Origin: Alphaproteobacteria bacterium
GTDB taxonomy: Bacteria; Pseudomonadota; Alphaproteobacteria; UBA828
Direction: 5' to 3'
Assembly (NCBI GenBank): GCA_965214705.1
Contig: OZ243972.1
Coordinates: 736,001-800,000, forward strand
DNA: 64,000 nucleotides
Shown: positions 53,662 through 62,430 of the stretch, one piece after another
Layout of the letters: each line of letters starts with the position of its first letter
Numbering within the stretch: position 1 is the first letter of the stretch
Made by a program: the position numbers and the translations under genes
Notes under the pieces: generated by a model
Seen by the model: only the letters and a program-made list of their open reading frames with translations
Told to the model about the DNA's origin: nothing
Databases searched by the model: none

Positions 53662-54344
53662 GTGCGTAGGGCCGAGCAGTGGGATGCGCGAAACAAGAGT
53701 GAGGCGTTGGGAGGCGGAATGAAGGGCATCATCCTCGCCGGGGGCGACGGCACGCGGCTCTTCCCGATCACCAGTGTGGTCAGCAAGCAGCTCCTGCCCG
53801 TTTACGACAAGCCGATGATCTACTACCCCCTCAGCGTCCTGATGCTGGCGGGAATCCGAGACATCCTGGTGATCACGACGCCACAGCAGAGCCGAAACTT
53901 CCGAGACTTGCTGGGCGACGGCAATCAATGGGGCCTTGCGCTGCGTCATGCCGTGCAGCCGAGCCCCGACGGGCTCGCTCAAGCCTTCCTCATCGGCAAG
54001 GCCTTCATCGGGGACGATACCTGTGCCCTCGCACTCGGCGACAATATCTTTTACGGCTACGGATTGGGGAGGATGCTTCGCCGCGCGGCCTACCGGCAAA
54101 AGGGCGCTACGGTTTGAACGAAGCCGCTACGCGGAGTTAGCGGCGTAGAGTTCATTCATTTCCGAGGCGTCGCGGGTGCCGTTTGTTCTGTGCGTTCGCT
54201 TCCCGGTTGCGTCAGTGGCGCTCCGCCCGTCGGGTGGCGGATCCCCAGCAGCCTCCCGATCACCAGTGGTTAGCATCGACCCCTGCGACGGACCGTCGCC
54301 GGATCGGTCCGGCGGCGCGCCGTCGCGATCCAGGGAGATCGATA

Positions 54345-55223
54345 ATGACCGGGACCGCGTGCGACACGAACACCGTCACCCCTCTTCGCCAGCGCATGGA
54401 GGAGCAGCTCCGCATCGCCAATCTGGCCGCGAGCACGTCCAAGGCCTACATCTGCGAGATCAAGAACCTGGCCAGGTACTACGACGCCTCGCCGGACGAG
54501 CTCGACGCCGAGCAGGTGCGCCAGTGGTACCTGGGGCGGATCGACAAGGGGCTCAGTCCGGGCACGACCAACGTCTCCTTCGCCGCGCTGAACTTCCTCT
54601 ACATCGACACACTCGGCTGGCCTGACCATGTCGCCGGCCTGCGCTCCCGCAAGAAGCCCGGCAAGCTGCCGCGCTACATGTCGGAGCAGGAGGTCGAGCA
54701 CCTCATCCTTGCGACACCCGACCTCCGCCACCGTGCTGCCATTGTCACCGGCTATGGCGGCGGGCTCCGCATCTCCGAGACCTTGGCCATCAAGGTCGGC
54801 GACATCCTGTCGGAGAAGAAGCTGCTGCACATCCCCTCCGGCAAAGGCGGCACCGAGAGAATGGCACCGTTGCCGGACATCGTCATCCACTACTTGCGCG
54901 TCTACTACAGGAACATCTGGCCGCGTCCGACGAGCTGGCTCTTCTACGGCGTCTCGCTCGACAGGCCCATCGCAACGGAGACCTTGCAGGCCGCCTTCAG
55001 GAGGGCGCGCGACATTGCCGAGCTCGACCGCAGCTACACCTTCCATTGCCTGCGCCATTCGGCGGCGACCCATCTCCTCGAGCGCGGCGGCGATATCGAG
55101 GTGATCCGGGACATGCTCGGCCATCGAAGCGCGAACACGACCCGTCACTACGCCCGCGTCACCGGCAAGATGTTCGAGGGCCTCGACCACCCGATCTCAG
55201 GCTTCGCAGCGTTGCGCAACTGA
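54345..55223 (+). CDS. XerD-like tyrosine recombinase/integrase
   Basis: GLRISE, GKGG, HCLRH, LGH, ..HY catalytic residues. Confidence 0.93.
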   Translation: MTGTACDTNTVTPLRQRMEEQLRIANLAASTSKAYICEIKNLARYYDASPDELDAEQVRQWYLGRIDKGLSPGTTNVSFAALNFLYIDTLGWPDHVAGLRSRKKPGKLPRYMSEQEVEHLILATPDLRHRAAIVTGYGGGLRISETLAIKVGDILSEKKLLHIPSGKGGTERMAPLPDIVIHYLRVYYRNIWPRPTSWLFYGVSLDRPIATETLQAAFRRARDIAELDRSYTFHCLRHSAATHLLERGGDIEVIRDMLGHRSANTTRHYARVTGKMFEGLDHPISGFAALRN

Positions 55224-57028
55224 CGGCGCGTGGAGGCCGAACGCGCGGGCGTGGCGGAGATCTTCCGCCGCGCCGGCGCCGCTTTCCGTGAGCGCCACAA
55301 AGGGCGCATCGACGCCGCCCGGCTCAAGGTCATGGGCGCCATCGAGGCGTGCCGCACCGCCGTGCTCGGCGGCCACATGTACGCCTGCGAGGGCTGCGGG
55401 CGCGAGCAATCGCGGTAGGGAAGCGGGTTGCCCCGCTCCCCCCGCGCAGATCCGGACGTGCCCGCTAAGGCATCCGGCTCCTCCCTCAGGTCGAACTGAC
55501 GGCTAGTCGTTGATCCGGCCACGGGTGTCGGATTCTCAGCTTGGGCCAGTGTCGAGCTTTAAGTTTGTCGATGTCGGCCCATGTAAATCGGTCCTTTTGC
55601 GATCTGCGGCGTATAATGGCGAGCCACACCCGCTTTAGGCGGACGAGGAAGCGTTGTAAGTACCGGCTGCTGGTCGGGACGGCATAGTAGTTCAGCCATC
55701 CGTCCACCACTTTGCCCAGCCACCTGGCCGTATCCTCGATGTTGTCATGCATCCGCCTGCGTAGCACCTCTTTGATCCGCTTCAGGGTGCGGGCCATCCT
55801 CTTCGCCATCGGCCTGCGCCCCAGCATGAAGTACCCCCGTCTGGTCTTCGCGCAGTAGTGTGTGAAGCCCAGAAAATCGAAGGTCTCCGGTCTACCCTGC
55901 CCTCGGCCTTGGCGGCGCTCTATGGCGTGCCGCCCGAACTCGATGAGCCGGGTCTTGTCGGGATGCAGTTCCAGGTCGAAGCGTCCGAGCCGCTCCTTTA
56001 CGGCCTCCAGAAAGCACTCCGCGTCCTGCTCGTGCTGAAAACCCACCACAGAGTCGTCGGCGTAGCGAACGATGATCGAGTCGCCGTTGACCTCGTGGCT
56101 GCGCCACTTCTTCTGGAACCAAAGATCGAGGACGTAGTGCAGATAAACGTTCGCCAAGATCGGCGAAATCACCGAACCCTGCGGAGTTCCCCGCAGGTCG
56201 TCACGCCACTCTCCAGCTTCCATGACGCCAGCGTTCAACCACTTGATAATCAGCCTGATAACCCGCCTGTCCCCTATCCGGTGCTCTAGAAACCGGACCA
56301 GCCAGTCCCTCGAAACCGTGTCGAAAAACTTGCGGATGTCACAGTCCACTATCCAGTTGATCTTGCGCCTTTCGATCCCGACCGCCAGCGCATCGAGCGC
56401 ATTGTGCGCCCCACGCTCGGGTCGGAACCCGTAGCTAAACCCCAGAAACTCCGCCTCGTAGATCGGCGTCAGGATTATCTCCGCCACAGCCTTCTGGACG
56501 ATCTTGTCCTCTATGGCCGCGACGCCGAGCGGTCGTGTGCCGCCATCCGGCTTCGGGATGTTCACCCGCCGTGATGGCGTCGCCCGGTACGCCCCCGAGT
56601 GCACTCGGTCGTGCAGGTCGGCGAGACGGCCTTCCAGCCCTTCCTTGTACATCCGCCACGTCAGGCCATCGACACCCGCCGCAGCGTCCTTCTTCAACTC
56701 GAAGAACGCCCAGCGCAGCGCAGCGCAGCGACCGTGACGTGATGGAGGAGCGTCGTGAGACGCACCCCAGGTTCCCTTTGTACAAACTGCCGTATCCGGT
56801 CAGCCGCTTGTGACACGCTCTCCCGGTCCTGCGTCCGGCGCGTGCTTTGGCCTTCCAGATTCCCCTTGGGCTCGGCCCTTGGCTCCACCGGCTCCGCCGG
56901 GGCAGGTGCCCCATTGTTCGCCGGCTTCATCGCTGTCGGGTCGGAGGAGGCGCCCCGCGAGGCTAGCCTCCGTCCGCCGCTCAAACGGCCCGTACGGTTT
57001 TCCCGTAAGCCGCTTTCACAAAGGTGTC

Positions 57029-58514
57029 TCAACGAAGGTTCAAGGACGGAACCAGTGAGATCAGGCGAACAAGCCCGTATTCGTCGATCAGCTTGCGCTC
57101 CGGCAACTGTTTCCAGCCAGCGTTGCGCCAGCGCTTGCGACGATGCGACCAGAGCCGCCGCACGATCCAGCCGTCAAGCTGGTGGAAGAGCCCGCGGACG
57201 TGGGCCTTGCAATAGTATTGGCCCCATCCCCGAATGATCGGGAAGGCTTATCCCCTTACATCCGGCTTCTCCATATGTGGGGTGCCGGATCGCTGGGCAC
57301 TTTACGGGCAACCCATTGAGACACGGAAGGAACTGCGACCGTGTCGGATACCGCCGCCGAGGTGATCGGTACAACATGTTGGGGAACCGGAGCCAGAGGG
57401 ATAAGCCTTTGATCGGGTTGATCTCGTCAATCAGCTCCTGCGTGCTGACAGGAGCCTTGCGCCGGGTACGCTGGCGAATCTGGTCCTTGAAGTGCCGGAT
57501 GGATTTCTCACGCGGAACCGCGTAGCGCGCTCCCCCGCGAACCCCGCTCTTGATCTTGGAGGACGACAGCCGGAGAGGCCGCTCGCCCTGCTTGATCTTG
57601 TAGCCGAGGAACTCAAACCCGTGCCTGACATGGACAATGCGGGTCTTCCCGGCGTTGAGGGACACACCCAGCTTTGCCAGAATCCGCCTGGCCGTCTCCA
57701 GTGCTGCGCGGGCTTCCCCGCGTGTGCGGCACGTGATCAGCCAATCATCGGCGTATCGCGTTAGTCGATAGCCGCGACGACGCATTTCCCAATCGAACGG
57801 GGTCAGCAAGATATTGCTGAGCAGCGGTGAAACGATGCCGCCCTGCGGAGTGCCCTGTTCGGTCGGCAGCCTCTTACCGTCGGCCACCACCCCGGCCGTG
57901 AGCATCTGCCTGAGCAGACCTAATACCCGGCCATCCGAGACTCGCTGGTTGACGAGTTCGAGGAGCTTTTCGTGGTCCACGGACCCGAAAAAGTCTTTCA
58001 AATCCGCATCGAGAACCCACTCGTTGCCCTCGTCCAGTTCCCTCCATATCTTGCGTAACGCTCCATGGGCAGACCTTCCTTGCCGGTACCCGTAGTTGGC
58101 ATCGTCGAACACCGGCTCGAAGATCGGTTCCAGCCGGTTCAGCAGCGCCTGCTGGCACACCCGGTCGTAGATTGTCGGGATGCCGAGCGGGCGGAACTTC
58201 CCCGGCTGGCCCGCCTTGGGGATCAGGCATTGGAGAACCGGCTGCGGGTGATACTCACCGTCCCGCAACTCCCGGTGCAGGCGATCGAGATTTGCATCCA
58301 GCGATGCCTCGAACGCCGCTAAATCCTCTCCGTCCACGCCACCGGCACCCCGGTTGCGCTTCACCTTTTCCCAGGCCACCTCAAGGTTCTTCCGCTTGTA
58401 CACCTTGTCCACCAGTGAGTGGACCTTCCTGTCACCCGCCGGGTTGATCCAGTCGATGAGTCTCCTCGGGCCATGATGTCCGGGTCTTTCGCTCAAGGAA
58501 CTTGTCCGCGTCAT
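57029..58514 (-). pseudogene. inner intron RT/maturase disrupted by a MITE
   Basis: KVHSLVDKVY, GTPQGG, YADD; ..INPI|IRGWGQYY.. resumes after the insert. Confidence 0.9.
57243..57409. mobile_element. 167-bp MITE (IS1595 ISSod11-like ends)
   Basis: 12-bp IR AAGGCTTATCCC; 8-bp duplication TGATCGGG at 57235-57242 and 57410-57417. Confidence 0.88.
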
Positions 58515-61416
58515 GGTCCTTACTCACTCATCGCTGTCTCTCGCCGACCACCTCTGCCAACCGCCTTCCCCGGCCCACACGGCCGCCGCTCGCGCGGTCA
58601 CCCGGCTTTCGCCGGGCTTCAGGTACTATTCGGTTGTCCGATTGCTCGCCGCGCATCCTTTCCCATTTCGCCTTTCGGCTTATAGGGTCCGTTATCCCGG
58701 TGCCACCCGGGAACGCGGCGAGCCCTCCTGGGGTCACGTCCAGATCTTCCGTACCGTGCCGCTCGCAAACACCTTGGTGCGACGGGTGGGTAAGAACGCC
58801 TTCGCCGCCATAGTGCCGGCTCGACCTTGCCCCGTCTTTGGCCGACCGATTCATCATGGGGTGGCCCCCTCGATTACGGCCCGGTACTTCTCCGCAAGCC
58901 CTTCAGATTCCACCTCGCGGTGGACACCCTGCCTTCCGGTTGTCTTTCGACAGTGGACCAACTTAGCTCCTCCCTTGGCTGTCTCCGCCGTTTCCGGCTT
59001 CGTGCCCGTTTAGAGTTTCGCTTATCGGCTCACTCCGGCCAGTGAGGAATTACCCCCACTTTTGGATATGGCGCCCCTTACCCGAGCGCCAGTGGGACTT
59101 GAACCCACCTGATCTGGGCGCTGCCCAGCACACACTATGGCCGAGTCTGATTTCTCCATGTCGTTCATCTTCGGTTACGGACTCCTCCTTTCCTCAGCGT
59201 TCCCGCCACGACTCAGCGGGATGACATGGAGACCTCCCAGGTCCCGGTGCAGTGCGTACGTACGTGCGTGGGTTCTCTGACACCGCGGGATTCAGACCCC
59301 CCTCGCCATATCGGTGGGCCAGATGCGACCTTCGGCCAACGAAAGAGCCTCGGCATCCCGGATGATGTTTCTTTCGGTGCTCAATAGCCCCGCCCACACG
59401 CGCCCCTGTCAACGCTTGACCCTCGCCCTCGCGAGCGACGGCCCATGACTCGGGGTGGAAGTGGTGGCTCACCTTCTCCTTCCTGTTGGACTTTCACCAA
59501 CTGCACTCGCACCAGTTCGCCTGGCGCACTCCGCTCTTCAACTCCTGCCGCAACCGCCACTGCCCCACCTGCCAGGGTCTCGCCGCCAACCTCTGGAGCG
59601 AGGAGCGCGCCGGGGACATCCTGCCGGTGCCCTACTTCCATGTGGTCTTCACCCTGCCCAAGGAGGTTGCCGCCATTGCCTTCTGCAACCGCAGGGTGGT
59701 GTTCGACATCCTCTTCCGGGCCGTCGCCGAGACCCTGCGCACCATCGCCGCCGATCCCCGCCACGGCGGCATGCGCATCGGCGGCACCGCGGTCCTCCAT
59801 ACCTGGGATCAGAAGCTCCGCTTCCACCCGCACCTGCACGTGGTCGTGCCCAACGCGGGCTTCGACGTAGACAGTGGCGAGTGGAAGACGGGGAGCACCA
59901 CCTTCCTCGCCCCCGTCAAGGTCCTCGGCAGCCTGTTCCGCCGCCTCTTCCTCGAGGAGCTCGCCCGCGCCCACGGCCGGGGGGACCTGGAGTTCCACGG
60001 CACCCTCGCCCACCTCGCCAATCCCGGCGAGTTCCACGCCACGCTTGCCGCCGCCCGGGCCAGGGACTGGGTGGTCTACGCCAAGCGGCCCTTCCGCGGG
60101 CCTGAGCAGGTCTTCCGGTACCTCTCGCACTACACGCACAGGATCGCCATCTCCGACAGCCGCATCGTCTCCTTCGACGGCGAGACGGTCTCCTTCCGCC
60201 ACCGAAAGCCCAAGGCGCCGGGGCAGAGAAAGCCGCGCTACGGCATCGCCACCGTGAGCGCCGACGAGTTCATCCGCCGCTTCCTGAGGCACGTCCTGCC
60301 GGACGGCATGCACCGCATTCGCTACTTCGGCATCCTCGCCAACGGCTGCCGCGCCAGCACGCTGGAGAGAGCACGCCAGGCTCTCGGCGCCCTCGGCTGC
60401 GCCGCCCCCGAGGGAAGCGTGGACGGCGCTCGGGCCGAGCCCGACGAAGAGCCCGAGATCGGCACCGCGCCCGTGGCCTGCCCCCACTGCGGCGGCGTCA
60501 TGCGCCTCGTCCGCGAAATCCGCCGCCGCCATGAGCCCCGCTCGACGCGCGGCCCGCCGGCGCTGCCGCCGACCCACAGGGGGAAACCGTGAGACGCCCG
60601 CTCGCTTCGGCCCCGCGCAACGGCGCCAAAGCGCCGACGCACGACCGAACCTGTCTCCGCTTGAGCCGGGCTGACAGCCCTCGGCTCACACCCCGCTCAG
60701 TCCTCGCAGCGTGCGCCCGCATGCCTGCCGAAAGACCGGCGCGAGCGTCGATTTTATGCGCAACTCTGCTGCCGGTGGATGCCGCCTGACGCTGACATCA
60801 GCGCACTTTCCACATAGCTCAACTTCGCCTCTCGTGGCCCGCGGCTTCGTTCAAAAGGGTTGGGCAGGCTCTCGAGAGAGAGCCTGCCCAACCCTTAACC
60901 TTTCGCGTACCCGGTTCGCGATCCGGAGCGTTACGGCGTCGTCGCCTTCGACGCGAGTGGCCGCGCGACCGCCATCGAGGAGAAGCCCCGGCAACCGCGC
61001 TCCCGATGGGCGGTTACGGGGCTCTATTTTTACGACAACGACGTCATCCGCATCGCCGAAGAGATCGAACCGAGCGCCCGCGGAGAATTGGAGATCACCG
61101 ACGTCAACCGGCGCTATCTCGATCGCGGCGACTTGCGAGTCGAGCAGTTGGGCCGAGGATTCACCTGGTTCGACACCGGGACGCACGACAGCCTGGTGGA
61201 GGCTTCGAGCTTCGTCCACACCATCGGGAAGCGCCAGAACCAGTGCATCGGCGTTCCGGAGGAGATCGCATACCAAAACGGCTGGATCGACCATACGGAG
61301 CTCGCCGCGCTCGGACATCGTCTGCGCCGGAGCAGCTACGGCCAACACCTGTTGCGGCTTGCCGGCGAGCTCGACGGGAGCGATGCCGCTGTCCCAGAGC
61401 CGTATTCCAACGCTCG

Positions 61417-62430
61417 ATGACGGACCGGAGCCAGACTCCGCAAGAGGCTGCCGCCCCCTGCCATGACGATCCGCCCGGCGAGGTCAGCGTCATCATGGTC
61501 TCATACAGGACCGGGCCCGTGCTCGCGCCTGCCGTCGACGCGGTGCTTGCGCCCGATCAAGAGGGCGTTGGCGAACTGATCCTCGTCGACAATGGCAACC
61601 CGCCAACGGTGACGGCGACGCTCGCCAGCCGGACGGACGCGGACCCGCGGCTGCGCATTGTCAGCGGTCATGGCAACGTGGGCTACGCGCGCGGCTGCAA
61701 CCTCGGCGCGCGAGAGGCGCGGGGACGCCACCTGCTGCTACTGAACCCGGACTGCTGCCTCAGGCCCGGCGCGGTTCCGGCGCTGCTGACGGAAGCTGCC
61801 GCGCTCGGCGACGAATGGATGCTGGGCTGGCGTGTGCGCAATCCCGACGGCACCGACCAGCGCGGGTCGCGGCGGGCGTTGCTCACCCCGCTCACCGCGC
61901 TTGTCGAGGCGTTCCGGCTCGACAGGCTCTCTCCCACGCTGTTTCAGCAACATCGGCTTAGCCAACACGAGACCGCGCTTCCCGAGGTTACGGCCCGCGT
62001 GCCTGCCATCAGCGGCGCCTGCATGATGCTGCCGGCCACCACCTATCGCGCCGCCGGCGGCCTGGACGAGGGCTACTTTCTGCACGTCGAAGATCTCGAC
62101 CTCTGCCTGCGCCTGCACCGGGCCGGGATCCCCATCTACTTCGCACCCCACGTGGAGGCGGTTCATCACGCGAGCACCAGCCGCACGCACCCGCTTCTGA
62201 TCGAGTGGTACAAGACCCGCGGCTTTCTCCGCTACTTCGGGCTGCACTACGGCAGGCTTCATTGGCTGCCCGTTCTGGTGCCGTTGGCGGCAGCGACCCT
62301 CGGCCGTTTGGGCCTCCGGGCCATGCTGACGTTTTCCGTCCTGCCGGGCAGCGCGCTGAAAGTCGTCGTCCGCCTCGCTTATTCCACCAAGCGCCCTGGA
62401 TGGAGGCTTGACGGGCCGCGGTCGTGGTAA
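61417..62430 (+). CDS. GT2 glycosyltransferase (rhamnosyltransferase-like)
   Basis: LVDN, NVGYARGCN, LLNPD, SGACM, GLDEGYFLHVEDLDLC. Confidence 0.88.
   Translation: MTDRSQTPQEAAAPCHDDPPGEVSVIMVSYRTGPVLAPAVDAVLAPDQEGVGELILVDNGNPPTVTATLASRTDADPRLRIVSGHGNVGYARGCNLGAREARGRHLLLLNPDCCLRPGAVPALLTEAAALGDEWMLGWRVRNPDGTDQRGSRRALLTPLTALVEAFRLDRLSPTLFQQHRLSQHETALPEVTARVPAISGACMMLPATTYRAAGGLDEGYFLHVEDLDLCLRLHRAGIPIYFAPHVEAVHHASTSRTHPLLIEWYKTRGFLRYFGLHYGRLHWLPVLVPLAAATLGRLGLRAMLTFSVLPGSALKVVVRLAYSTKRPGWRLDGPRSW

Follow-up and report, generated by a model that had tools for sequence, protein, structure and literature searches.

The 64,000-nucleotide stretch of contig OZ243972.1 analysed here (assembly GCA_965214705.1 of an alphaproteobacterium of the UBA828 lineage, positions 736,001 to 800,000 of the forward strand; referred to below as the window) carries an insertion sequence that interrupts the rmlA/rfbA gene. 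The element encodes a tyrosine recombinase and, directly downstream, a transposase with HUH and two-tyrosine (Y2) motifs; judged by its sequence it is a member of the IS91 family, in the subgroup whose two genes encode a tyrosine recombinase and a Y2 HUH transposase and which ISMno24 represents in databases. Its genome now contains about 94 near-identical copies, the product of recent multiplication, and these are inserted without target duplication, in a single orientation and immediately 5′ of TT, sometimes of AT or CT. The mechanism that we favour, with a probability of roughly 0.55, is IS91-like rolling-circle transposition of a single strand by the HUH enzyme, with the recombinase in a helper role, as argued by analogy below. 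The element and its host gene lie as follows.

53719–54113, plus strand: 5′ part of rmlA/rfbA (TIGR01207 profile positions 1–130, 219.8 bits)
54114–60900, plus strand: window copy of the insertion sequence, 6,787 bp; the intact form is 2,666 bp, 5′-TTGAAC...AACC-3′
60901–61417, plus strand: 3′ part of rmlA/rfbA (TIGR01207 profile positions 132–285, 228.8 bits)

Both flanks match glucose-1-phosphate thymidylyltransferase (NCBIfam TIGR01207), which identifies the host gene as rmlA/rfbA. The empty site is bridged directly by contigs from two studies (runs X4 and X7), in which 54113 is joined to 60901; these contigs skip 6,787 nt beginning with TT and ending with CC, with an ambiguity of 2 nt. Element repeat contigs in three runs start at 54114, and both this start and the end at 60900 are also backed by paralogous empty sites within the genome. 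The initial annotation, made from the sequence alone, had rightly placed the element in a known target gene and predicted the empty site; its boundaries, 54113 and 60901, are each one base too wide. Two paralogous matches to the interrupted gene, with ~80% identity, are present elsewhere in the same genome, so that the loss of this copy may be buffered.

The genome comprises 7.92 Mb in three contigs, and BLAST searches with the 400 nt at each end of the element as queries located 94 left and 93 right ends in it. Left and right ends lying within 9 kb of each other form 89 pairs, of which 61 span exactly 2,666 bp, in agreement with the intron-free element of ~2.7 kb that had been predicted; five more span 2,663–2,670 bp, and the remaining 23 are longer because of secondary insertions. 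A diverged subfamily of five copies has a variant right repeat.

At the left end, the dinucleotide preceding GAAC has T at position −2 in 91 of 94 copies and T at position −1 in 93 of 94. At the right end, the two bases after AACC in the 89 paired copies are TT (72), AT (9), CT (5) or GA (3), counted after exclusion of a secondary insertion sequence that occupies the right end of nine copies. Taken as left/right pairs, these are TT/TT in 70 copies, TT/AT in 8, TT/CT in 4, TT/GA in 3, CT/TT in 2, and TA/CT and AT/AT in one each, the last two belonging to the diverged subfamily. Repeated genomic sequence served as the reference for empty sites; exact matching gave 22 cases among the 89 copies, including two self-matches at a tandem pair, and BLAST gave 43. 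In all five informative cases with AT or CT in the right flank, the paralogue holds that dinucleotide once and no TT, so the left TT belongs to the element and there is no duplication. One of these informative sites lies inside the element's own recombinase gene, where the reference amounts to about 100 copies. Among TT/TT copies with a paralogue at least 95% identical, a single TT is present in 17 of 22 paralogues.

Other placements of the boundary were considered and rejected. A 2-bp duplication of TT is ruled out, as copies whose right flank is AT or CT have a left TT and their paralogues only AT or CT; the same paralogues rule out an element GAAC...AACCTT inserted 3′ of TT, an arrangement that fits one CT/TT copy. 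Insertion between the two Ts fails for the TT/AT copies. Transduction of the right flank, considered for a sequence beginning CGAACTTCC that nine copies share after AACC, is explained by a separate insertion sequence of 2,098 bp.

Over 88 unique sites, the target has T at +1 (71 sites) and +2 (85), G at +3 (42), C at +6 (64) and G at +7 (50). Upstream of the insertion point, position −1 is C or T in 74 sites and G in only 2, and there is an excess of A at −8 and −7 (42 sites each). TTGnnCG, the right half of this target, faintly resembles the element's own left end, and four of the 88 insertions sit at the left end of either another copy or a sister element. The target beside the hairpin end is not the tetranucleotide of IS91-type elements (GTTC, CTTG or GTCC). 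The absence of duplication, the fixed orientation and the short target beside the hairpin end together constitute an IS91/HUH signature.

Bounding the element are the following terminal features.

54114–54127, plus strand: left terminal inverted repeat of 14 bp, from a repeat search; its bottom strand ends ...GTTCAA-3′ and is terIS-like
54123–54144, plus strand: left subterminal palindrome with 7-bp arms and an 8-nt loop, from the fold of 54114–54160
60841–60854, plus strand: second, subterminal arm of the repeat, separated from the right end by 46 nt and found in all copies
60855–60896, plus strand: hairpin at the oriIS-like end, with a perfect 19-bp stem (arms 60855–60873 and 60878–60896) and a 4-nt loop
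60897–60900, plus strand: terminal AACC, directly after the hairpin; a 4-nt bulge once the ends are joined

The two ends are unlike each other, as in the IS91 family: downstream of tnpA is the hairpin at 60855–60896 and upstream of it the palindrome at 54123–54144, which by analogy would take the roles of oriIS and terIS, respectively. The 19-bp hairpin with its GAGA loop and the AACC that follows, at 60855–60900, are present just as initially described, and so is the placement of the repeat, at the very end on the left and further in on the right; the length of the repeat had been given as 15 bp. A perfect inverted repeat of 15 nt can indeed be read in the window (arms 54113–54127 and 60841–60855), but its fifteenth pair arises by chance from the rmlA flank, and the element's own repeat is 14 bp.

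The hairpin tail is present in all 89 paired copies, with the AACC end aligned. Each of the 92 hairpin tails in the genome adjoins a repeat-like (GTTCAA-type) sequence; one odd tail, at contig 1:3505992, abuts the end of a related element. The canonical tail directly follows the repeat in all but one of 85 right-end bodies, the exception being a symmetrised tandem junction. As every tail has a repeat-like neighbour and a single right-end body lacks the canonical tail, there is no sign of cutting at the inner repeat. Nor was any sign found of the recombinase having inverted the segment between the repeats, as no right-end BLAST hit breaks at the repeat.

Folded alone, the right end has an energy of −28.5 kcal/mol, and the two ends joined in silico reach −46.8 kcal/mol (DNA parameters; z = −10.5 against shuffles). 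The joined-end fold consists of a 14-bp stem formed by both repeats, a 4-nt AACC bulge on the top strand abutting the joint, and the 19-bp hairpin. In a circle, the terminal repeat would plausibly pair both ends in this way and place the joint beside the bulge, as is typical of HUH substrates. The bottom strand of the element starts with GGTT, followed by the hairpin, and ends in GTTCAA-3′, and in most copies its 5′ flank is AA.

Two further observations concern these ends. The 4-nt hairpin loop is inverted (TCTC for GAGA) in 6 of 85 canonical right ends, with the rest unchanged, a flip-flop pattern reminiscent of the hairpin ends of elements that are replicated by nicking enzymes. The only tandem dimer among the about 94 copies (L105, contig 2, 646480–646720) has a junction with an extra GGTT ahead of the hairpin; read as repeat, GGTT, hairpin, AACC and repeat, this junction is a palindrome, perfect save for the loop. 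A 50-nt unit of it also adjoins the left end of a sister element on contig 1, near 3505992.

Between the two ends are the recombinase gene and a transposase gene that is split in the window copy.

54345–55223, plus strand: tyrosine recombinase gene, 292 amino acids, Xer/integron-like (Pfam Phage_integrase 114.9 bits, SAM_4 46.5 bits)
55230–55408, plus strand: 5′ piece of the IS91-family transposase gene, first 60 codons (Zn_Tnp_IS91 profile positions 1–48 of 90)
55409–59529, minus strand: group II intron composite, 4,121 nt (RF02005, 172.1 bits, 59271–59494; RF00029, 36.1 bits, 55409–55482)
59530–60592, plus strand: 3′ piece of the transposase gene, with the HUH and two-tyrosine motifs (Y2_Tnp PF04986, 184.8 bits; Zn_Tnp_IS91 positions 50–90)

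Starting with GTG at 55230, 6 nt past the recombinase stop at 55223, is the transposase gene; the XerD-like and IS91-like genes 6 bp apart that had been noted in the sequence are confirmed by their Pfam domains. In the window copy, the zinc-binding domain (PF14319) is split at profile positions 48/50, and in an intact copy (L002) it is continuous. The intact transposase has 413 amino acids and scores 382.5 bits with NF033538, against a cut-off of 125. Its residues H159, H161 and H163 of the HUH motif and Y257 and Y261 are invariant in the transposase alignment (A1). Zn_Tnp_IS91 and Y2_Tnp are the only domains found in the 413 residues, among which there is no helicase domain, and no solved structure is related to the transposase by sequence at E values up to 0.01.

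The recombinase has all six catalytic residues. Its profile matches fall below the NCBIfam cut-offs for XerC (134.4 bits against 335.15), XerD (118 against 329.6) and integron integrase (TIGR02249, 130.2 bits against 265, in two stretches). By sequence, its closest relatives of solved structure are XerA and XerD, and a match to IntI4 is limited to residues 213–285. Among 69 relatives sharing ~35% identity, the catalytic R, K, H and R are kept in all, and the final H and Y in 67. Because these residues are kept, a catalytic role for the recombinase is likely.

A scan for relatives, with one genome per species, returned at least 595 related stretches; the best 80 of them and four plasmid loci, 84 in total, were analysed. 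The recombinase gene is directly upstream of tnpA and on the same strand in 80 of the 84 loci; of the other four, upstream DNA is missing from two, a truncated remnant of the recombinase gene remains in one, and the fourth is itself truncated. Identity to the element is about 50% for the transposase and about 35% for the recombinase. When the ends of homologues were compared, as the initial annotation had proposed, the left box G-N-A-C-G/T-A-A-N-CCGC with an inverted copy downstream of tnpA was found by motif search in 52 of 80 loci, and a hairpin after the inverted copy (z < −2; median z −3.8) in 47 of these 52. Repeat and hairpin are thus kept in relatives, whereas the initial annotation had named their lack of conservation as a ground for refutation. 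A small CCGC...GCGG palindrome is located at the equivalent place of the left end in relatives. The hairpin stems differ in sequence among lineages, and a sister family in the same genome has compensatory stem changes. Exact termini of relatives were defined in one independent genome (G001; transposase 78% identical), where TT is found at the left end of 5 of 6 copies and in the right flank of 5 of 6.

Elements of this composition have been catalogued before. On plasmid pMNOD01 of Methylobacterium nodulans, a tyrosine recombinase gene is followed, after 16 bp, by a gene that NCBI annotates as 'IS91-like element ISMno24 family transposase', and similar pairs are annotated in plasmids of Magnetospirillum and Dinoroseobacter. 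In ISMno24 and these alphaproteobacterial pairs, as in the element, the recombinase gene is directly upstream, and the left box and the right repeat with its hairpin occupy the same places; ISMno24 differs in its end sequences and has about 51% identity in the transposase and about 37% in the recombinase. A survey lists 245 'IS91 - XerD' gene couples in 15 phyla. The element is thus one more member of a catalogued IS91 subgroup. The initial annotation had called the class poorly characterised, which is true with regard to mechanism, for our literature searches found passing mentions and no experimental or mechanistic work on recombinase-bearing IS91 elements, but not with regard to its discovery. 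ISWz1 and ISShvi3, candidates for further two-gene members, were confirmed as names of the IS91 family but not as carriers of a recombinase. In a 2026 paper on IS91 (PMC13181058), the words integrase, recombinase and tyrosine do not occur.

According to that text, four members of the family have been shown to transpose. Their oriIS, downstream of tnpA, has one or two palindromes and is next to a tetranucleotide target, which is not duplicated; their terIS, upstream of tnpA, has one subterminal palindrome at the cleavage site, which is GTTC in IS801 and IS1294. A single-stranded circle of the bottom strand is the functional intermediate of IS91 (PMC13181058, in the part available). Common to the element and to IS91, IS801, IS1294 and IS1294b are a Y2 HUH transposase with a zinc-binding N terminus and insertion without target duplication; these members further share with it a palindrome-rich end downstream of tnpA beside a short target and an upstream end with a subterminal palindrome and GTTC. 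Unlike them, it has a tyrosine recombinase and a 14-bp repeat whose left copy is terminal and whose right copy is subterminal, its target is TT, its left end extends two bases past GTTC, and no read-through products are seen. Its ends are therefore unlike those of textbook IS91, as had been pointed out.

Helitrons, the eukaryotic Y2 HUH rolling-circle elements, also have a hairpin a few bases from one end and insert at a dinucleotide such as TT in one orientation without duplication (as given in the available part of PMC10288648). The element resembles them in its near-end hairpin and its TT-type insertion without duplication, and differs in being bacterial, in lacking a helicase domain and in having a recombinase; a further difference would lie in the functional circle, which in IS91 is the bottom strand, antisense to tnpA. 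With IS200/IS605 elements such as IS608 it shares the HUH enzyme, subterminal hairpins and the absence of duplication. A target that resembles the element's own end sequence is likewise a feature of IS608. Unlike the IS200/IS605 elements, it is a Y2 and not a Y1 element and is much larger, and a bias in its orientation relative to replication could not be shown.

Since the element is laid out like IS91, except that its target is shorter and its left end reaches two bases further, we infer rolling-circle transposition by its HUH enzyme. By analogy with IS91, the transposase would nick the bottom strand at the right, oriIS-like hairpin end, the nicked strand would be displaced towards the left end, and transfer would end after ...GTTCAA at the terIS-like sequence. 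The resulting single-stranded circle would fold at its junction into the 14-bp repeat stem, the 4-nt bulge at the joint and the 19-bp hairpin; the transposase would then reopen the joint, and the strand would be inserted 3′ of AA in the target strand. The recombinase would act as a helper on the joined or tandem form, for example by resolving tandem or double-stranded by-products, or in accurate termination. Among the 89 paired copies, no two share their left flank only. Read-through beyond the left end has thus left no trace, and this lends a little support to a helper in termination or resolution. We do not think that the recombinase is the main integrase.

Several points weigh against this mechanism. 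Every step from nicking to reinsertion is drawn by analogy with IS91, IS801 and IS1294, and the TT target and the left cut two bases beyond GTTC depart from the GTTC, CTTG or GTCC of the studied members. Four of the 94 left ends do not start with TT, 5 of the 22 comparisons of TT/TT copies with their paralogues are off by 1–2 bases, and the paralogue of one CT/TT copy has CT, which fits a cut two bases further on. Nor do the copies have a consistent orientation relative to replication: by local GC skew they divide 65 versus 29, and by replichore 32:14 (contig 1) and 13:17 (contig 3). The conserved catalytic residues, moreover, argue for a DNA-breaking role that a helper function leaves vague.

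Such a role would be provided if two enzymes worked in relay, the HUH enzyme making the single-stranded circle and an integron-like recombinase exchanging its folded junction into the target, as IntI does with attC, before replication resolves the product. This would account for the conserved catalytic residues, for joined ends that fold into two stems with a bulge, and for insertion that is orientation-specific, free of duplication and 5′ of TT. The element also recalls the layout of a gene cassette, with TT and a purine-rich start at one end and a repeat–hairpin module at the other, although, unlike integron cassettes, it also carries an HUH transposase. Integron sites, however, are cut after G, and G precedes the insertion point in only 2 of 88 sites. 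Although the integron-integrase profile does match the recombinase, it does so at 130.2 bits, below the cut-off of 265, and the solved relatives are led by XerA and XerD, with IntI4 confined to residues 213–285. In the accessible part of a preprint, recombinases 'found in IS91' are grouped with IntI in an integron-like subgroup, but the extra helices of IntI are absent from them. The studied IS91 members, by the available text of PMC13181058, insert their circles with the transposase alone. We regard the relay as unlikely; if the recombinase did carry out, or reverse, the exchange at the folded junction, elements of this kind would be cassette-like units that mobilise themselves, and might link HUH transposons in evolution to the integron type of folded-single-strand recombination.

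An even lower probability attaches to a Tn916-like cycle, in which the recombinase, acting at the inverted repeats, would excise and integrate a double-stranded circle that the HUH enzyme replicates from the hairpin. The initial annotation had suggested that the recombinase excises and integrates at the repeats, a proposal that the IS91/HUH signature of the insertions and the 92 tails, all with a repeat-like neighbour, do not support. The repeats and an intact recombinase are conserved together and one tandem dimer exists, as would be expected of such a cycle, but the right repeat is 46 nt internal and the tail beyond it is nonetheless retained in every paired copy and never found without adjoining repeat-like sequence. 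Recombinase core sites have spacers of 6–8 bp, against the 46 bp that would separate the repeats once the circle is joined. The flanks, in addition, carry no coupling sequence beyond the almost constant TT. A more modest part for the recombinase would be that of a fidelity or control factor, which binds the repeats, secures termination at the left end or resolves tandems, and uses its catalysis for resolution only. The accessible text of PMC13181058 offers a parallel in Orf121 of IS91, which is encoded in the equivalent position upstream of tnpA and improves cleavage at terIS, and it reports one-ended events at 1–14% for IS91 and IS1294, against no pair sharing the left flank only among the 89 copies here; a single tandem dimer among about 94 copies points the same way. 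Fixed copies are, however, a filtered sample in which missing read-through products count for little, Orf121 is unrelated to recombinases, and binding of the repeats by the recombinase is a supposition; we consider this reading, too, improbable.

The group II intron composite that splits the transposase gene holds two reverse-transcriptase open reading frames. Of its two Rfam matches, RF02005 is the group II intron 5′ domain, and RF00029 (domain V/VI) lies with its 36.1 bits below the gathering score of 40. The joint of 55408 to 59530 without the composite is seen in four of four runs. Being antisense to the transposase gene, the composite cannot be spliced from its message, and the window copy consequently makes no transposase and could be moved only in trans. 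The same composite occupies the equivalent site in another element copy, at position 1616528 of contig 3. In one contig of run X7, 56928 and 59134 are joined across six other letters and the intervening 2,205 nt are missing; on this evidence a second segment bearing a reverse transcriptase is nested in the outer intron. At the start of the nested segment is a tRNA-like stretch (59085–59132) with a T-arm-like GGTTCAAGTCC and weak Rfam hints (18.7 bits, E = 1.7). Contigs of X1 and X7 are without 5 nt at 56711, where an extra GCGCA unit in the window shifts the frame of the downstream reverse-transcriptase reading frame. Inside the first of these reading frames is a 167-bp element with inverted ends (57235–57409; arms 57243–57278 and 57374–57409) and an apparent 8-bp duplication, which resembles a miniature transposable element; it is missing from contigs of three runs and has some 25–30 partial matches in the genome.

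Two other elements are inserted into copies of the insertion sequence. One, of 1,649 bp, encodes a 433-amino-acid protein (for example, at contig 1 position 3514777), which we take to be a candidate IS110-family transposase. It has 18 full-length copies in the genome. At least 16 copies of the insertion sequence carry it at element position 1306, within their transposase gene, either by itself or together with other inserts; it appears to target the IS91-type insertion sequence. The other, of 2,098 bp with CGAACTTCC-type inverted ends (for example, at contig 3 position 1555947), has 15 full copies, 9 of them in CTTAACC at the element end, and occurs in both orientations with an apparent duplication of its site. 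Sister elements in the genome (for example, at contig 3 positions 432487, 2500026, 2577151 and 2915202, in strand-specific coordinates) have the same right repeat, but their hairpin is another one, in which stem changes are compensatory, and they end in ...CTAAAGA, as does a relative in locus L025. Two copies of the main element are located directly upstream of the left end of a sister.

The IS91 family mobilises neighbouring genes, and none of its four proven members has a recombinase, according to the accessible text of PMC13181058. The recombinase-bearing subgroup is nevertheless widespread, with 245 gene couples in 15 phyla and at least 595 related stretches in the scan for relatives. For this subgroup the genome constitutes a clean natural data set, comprising about 94 copies with near-identical and base-exact ends, 61 of them of intact length, many empty sites, a clear target logo, a tandem junction and flipped loops, and with it the role of the recombinase becomes directly testable with mutants of each enzyme.

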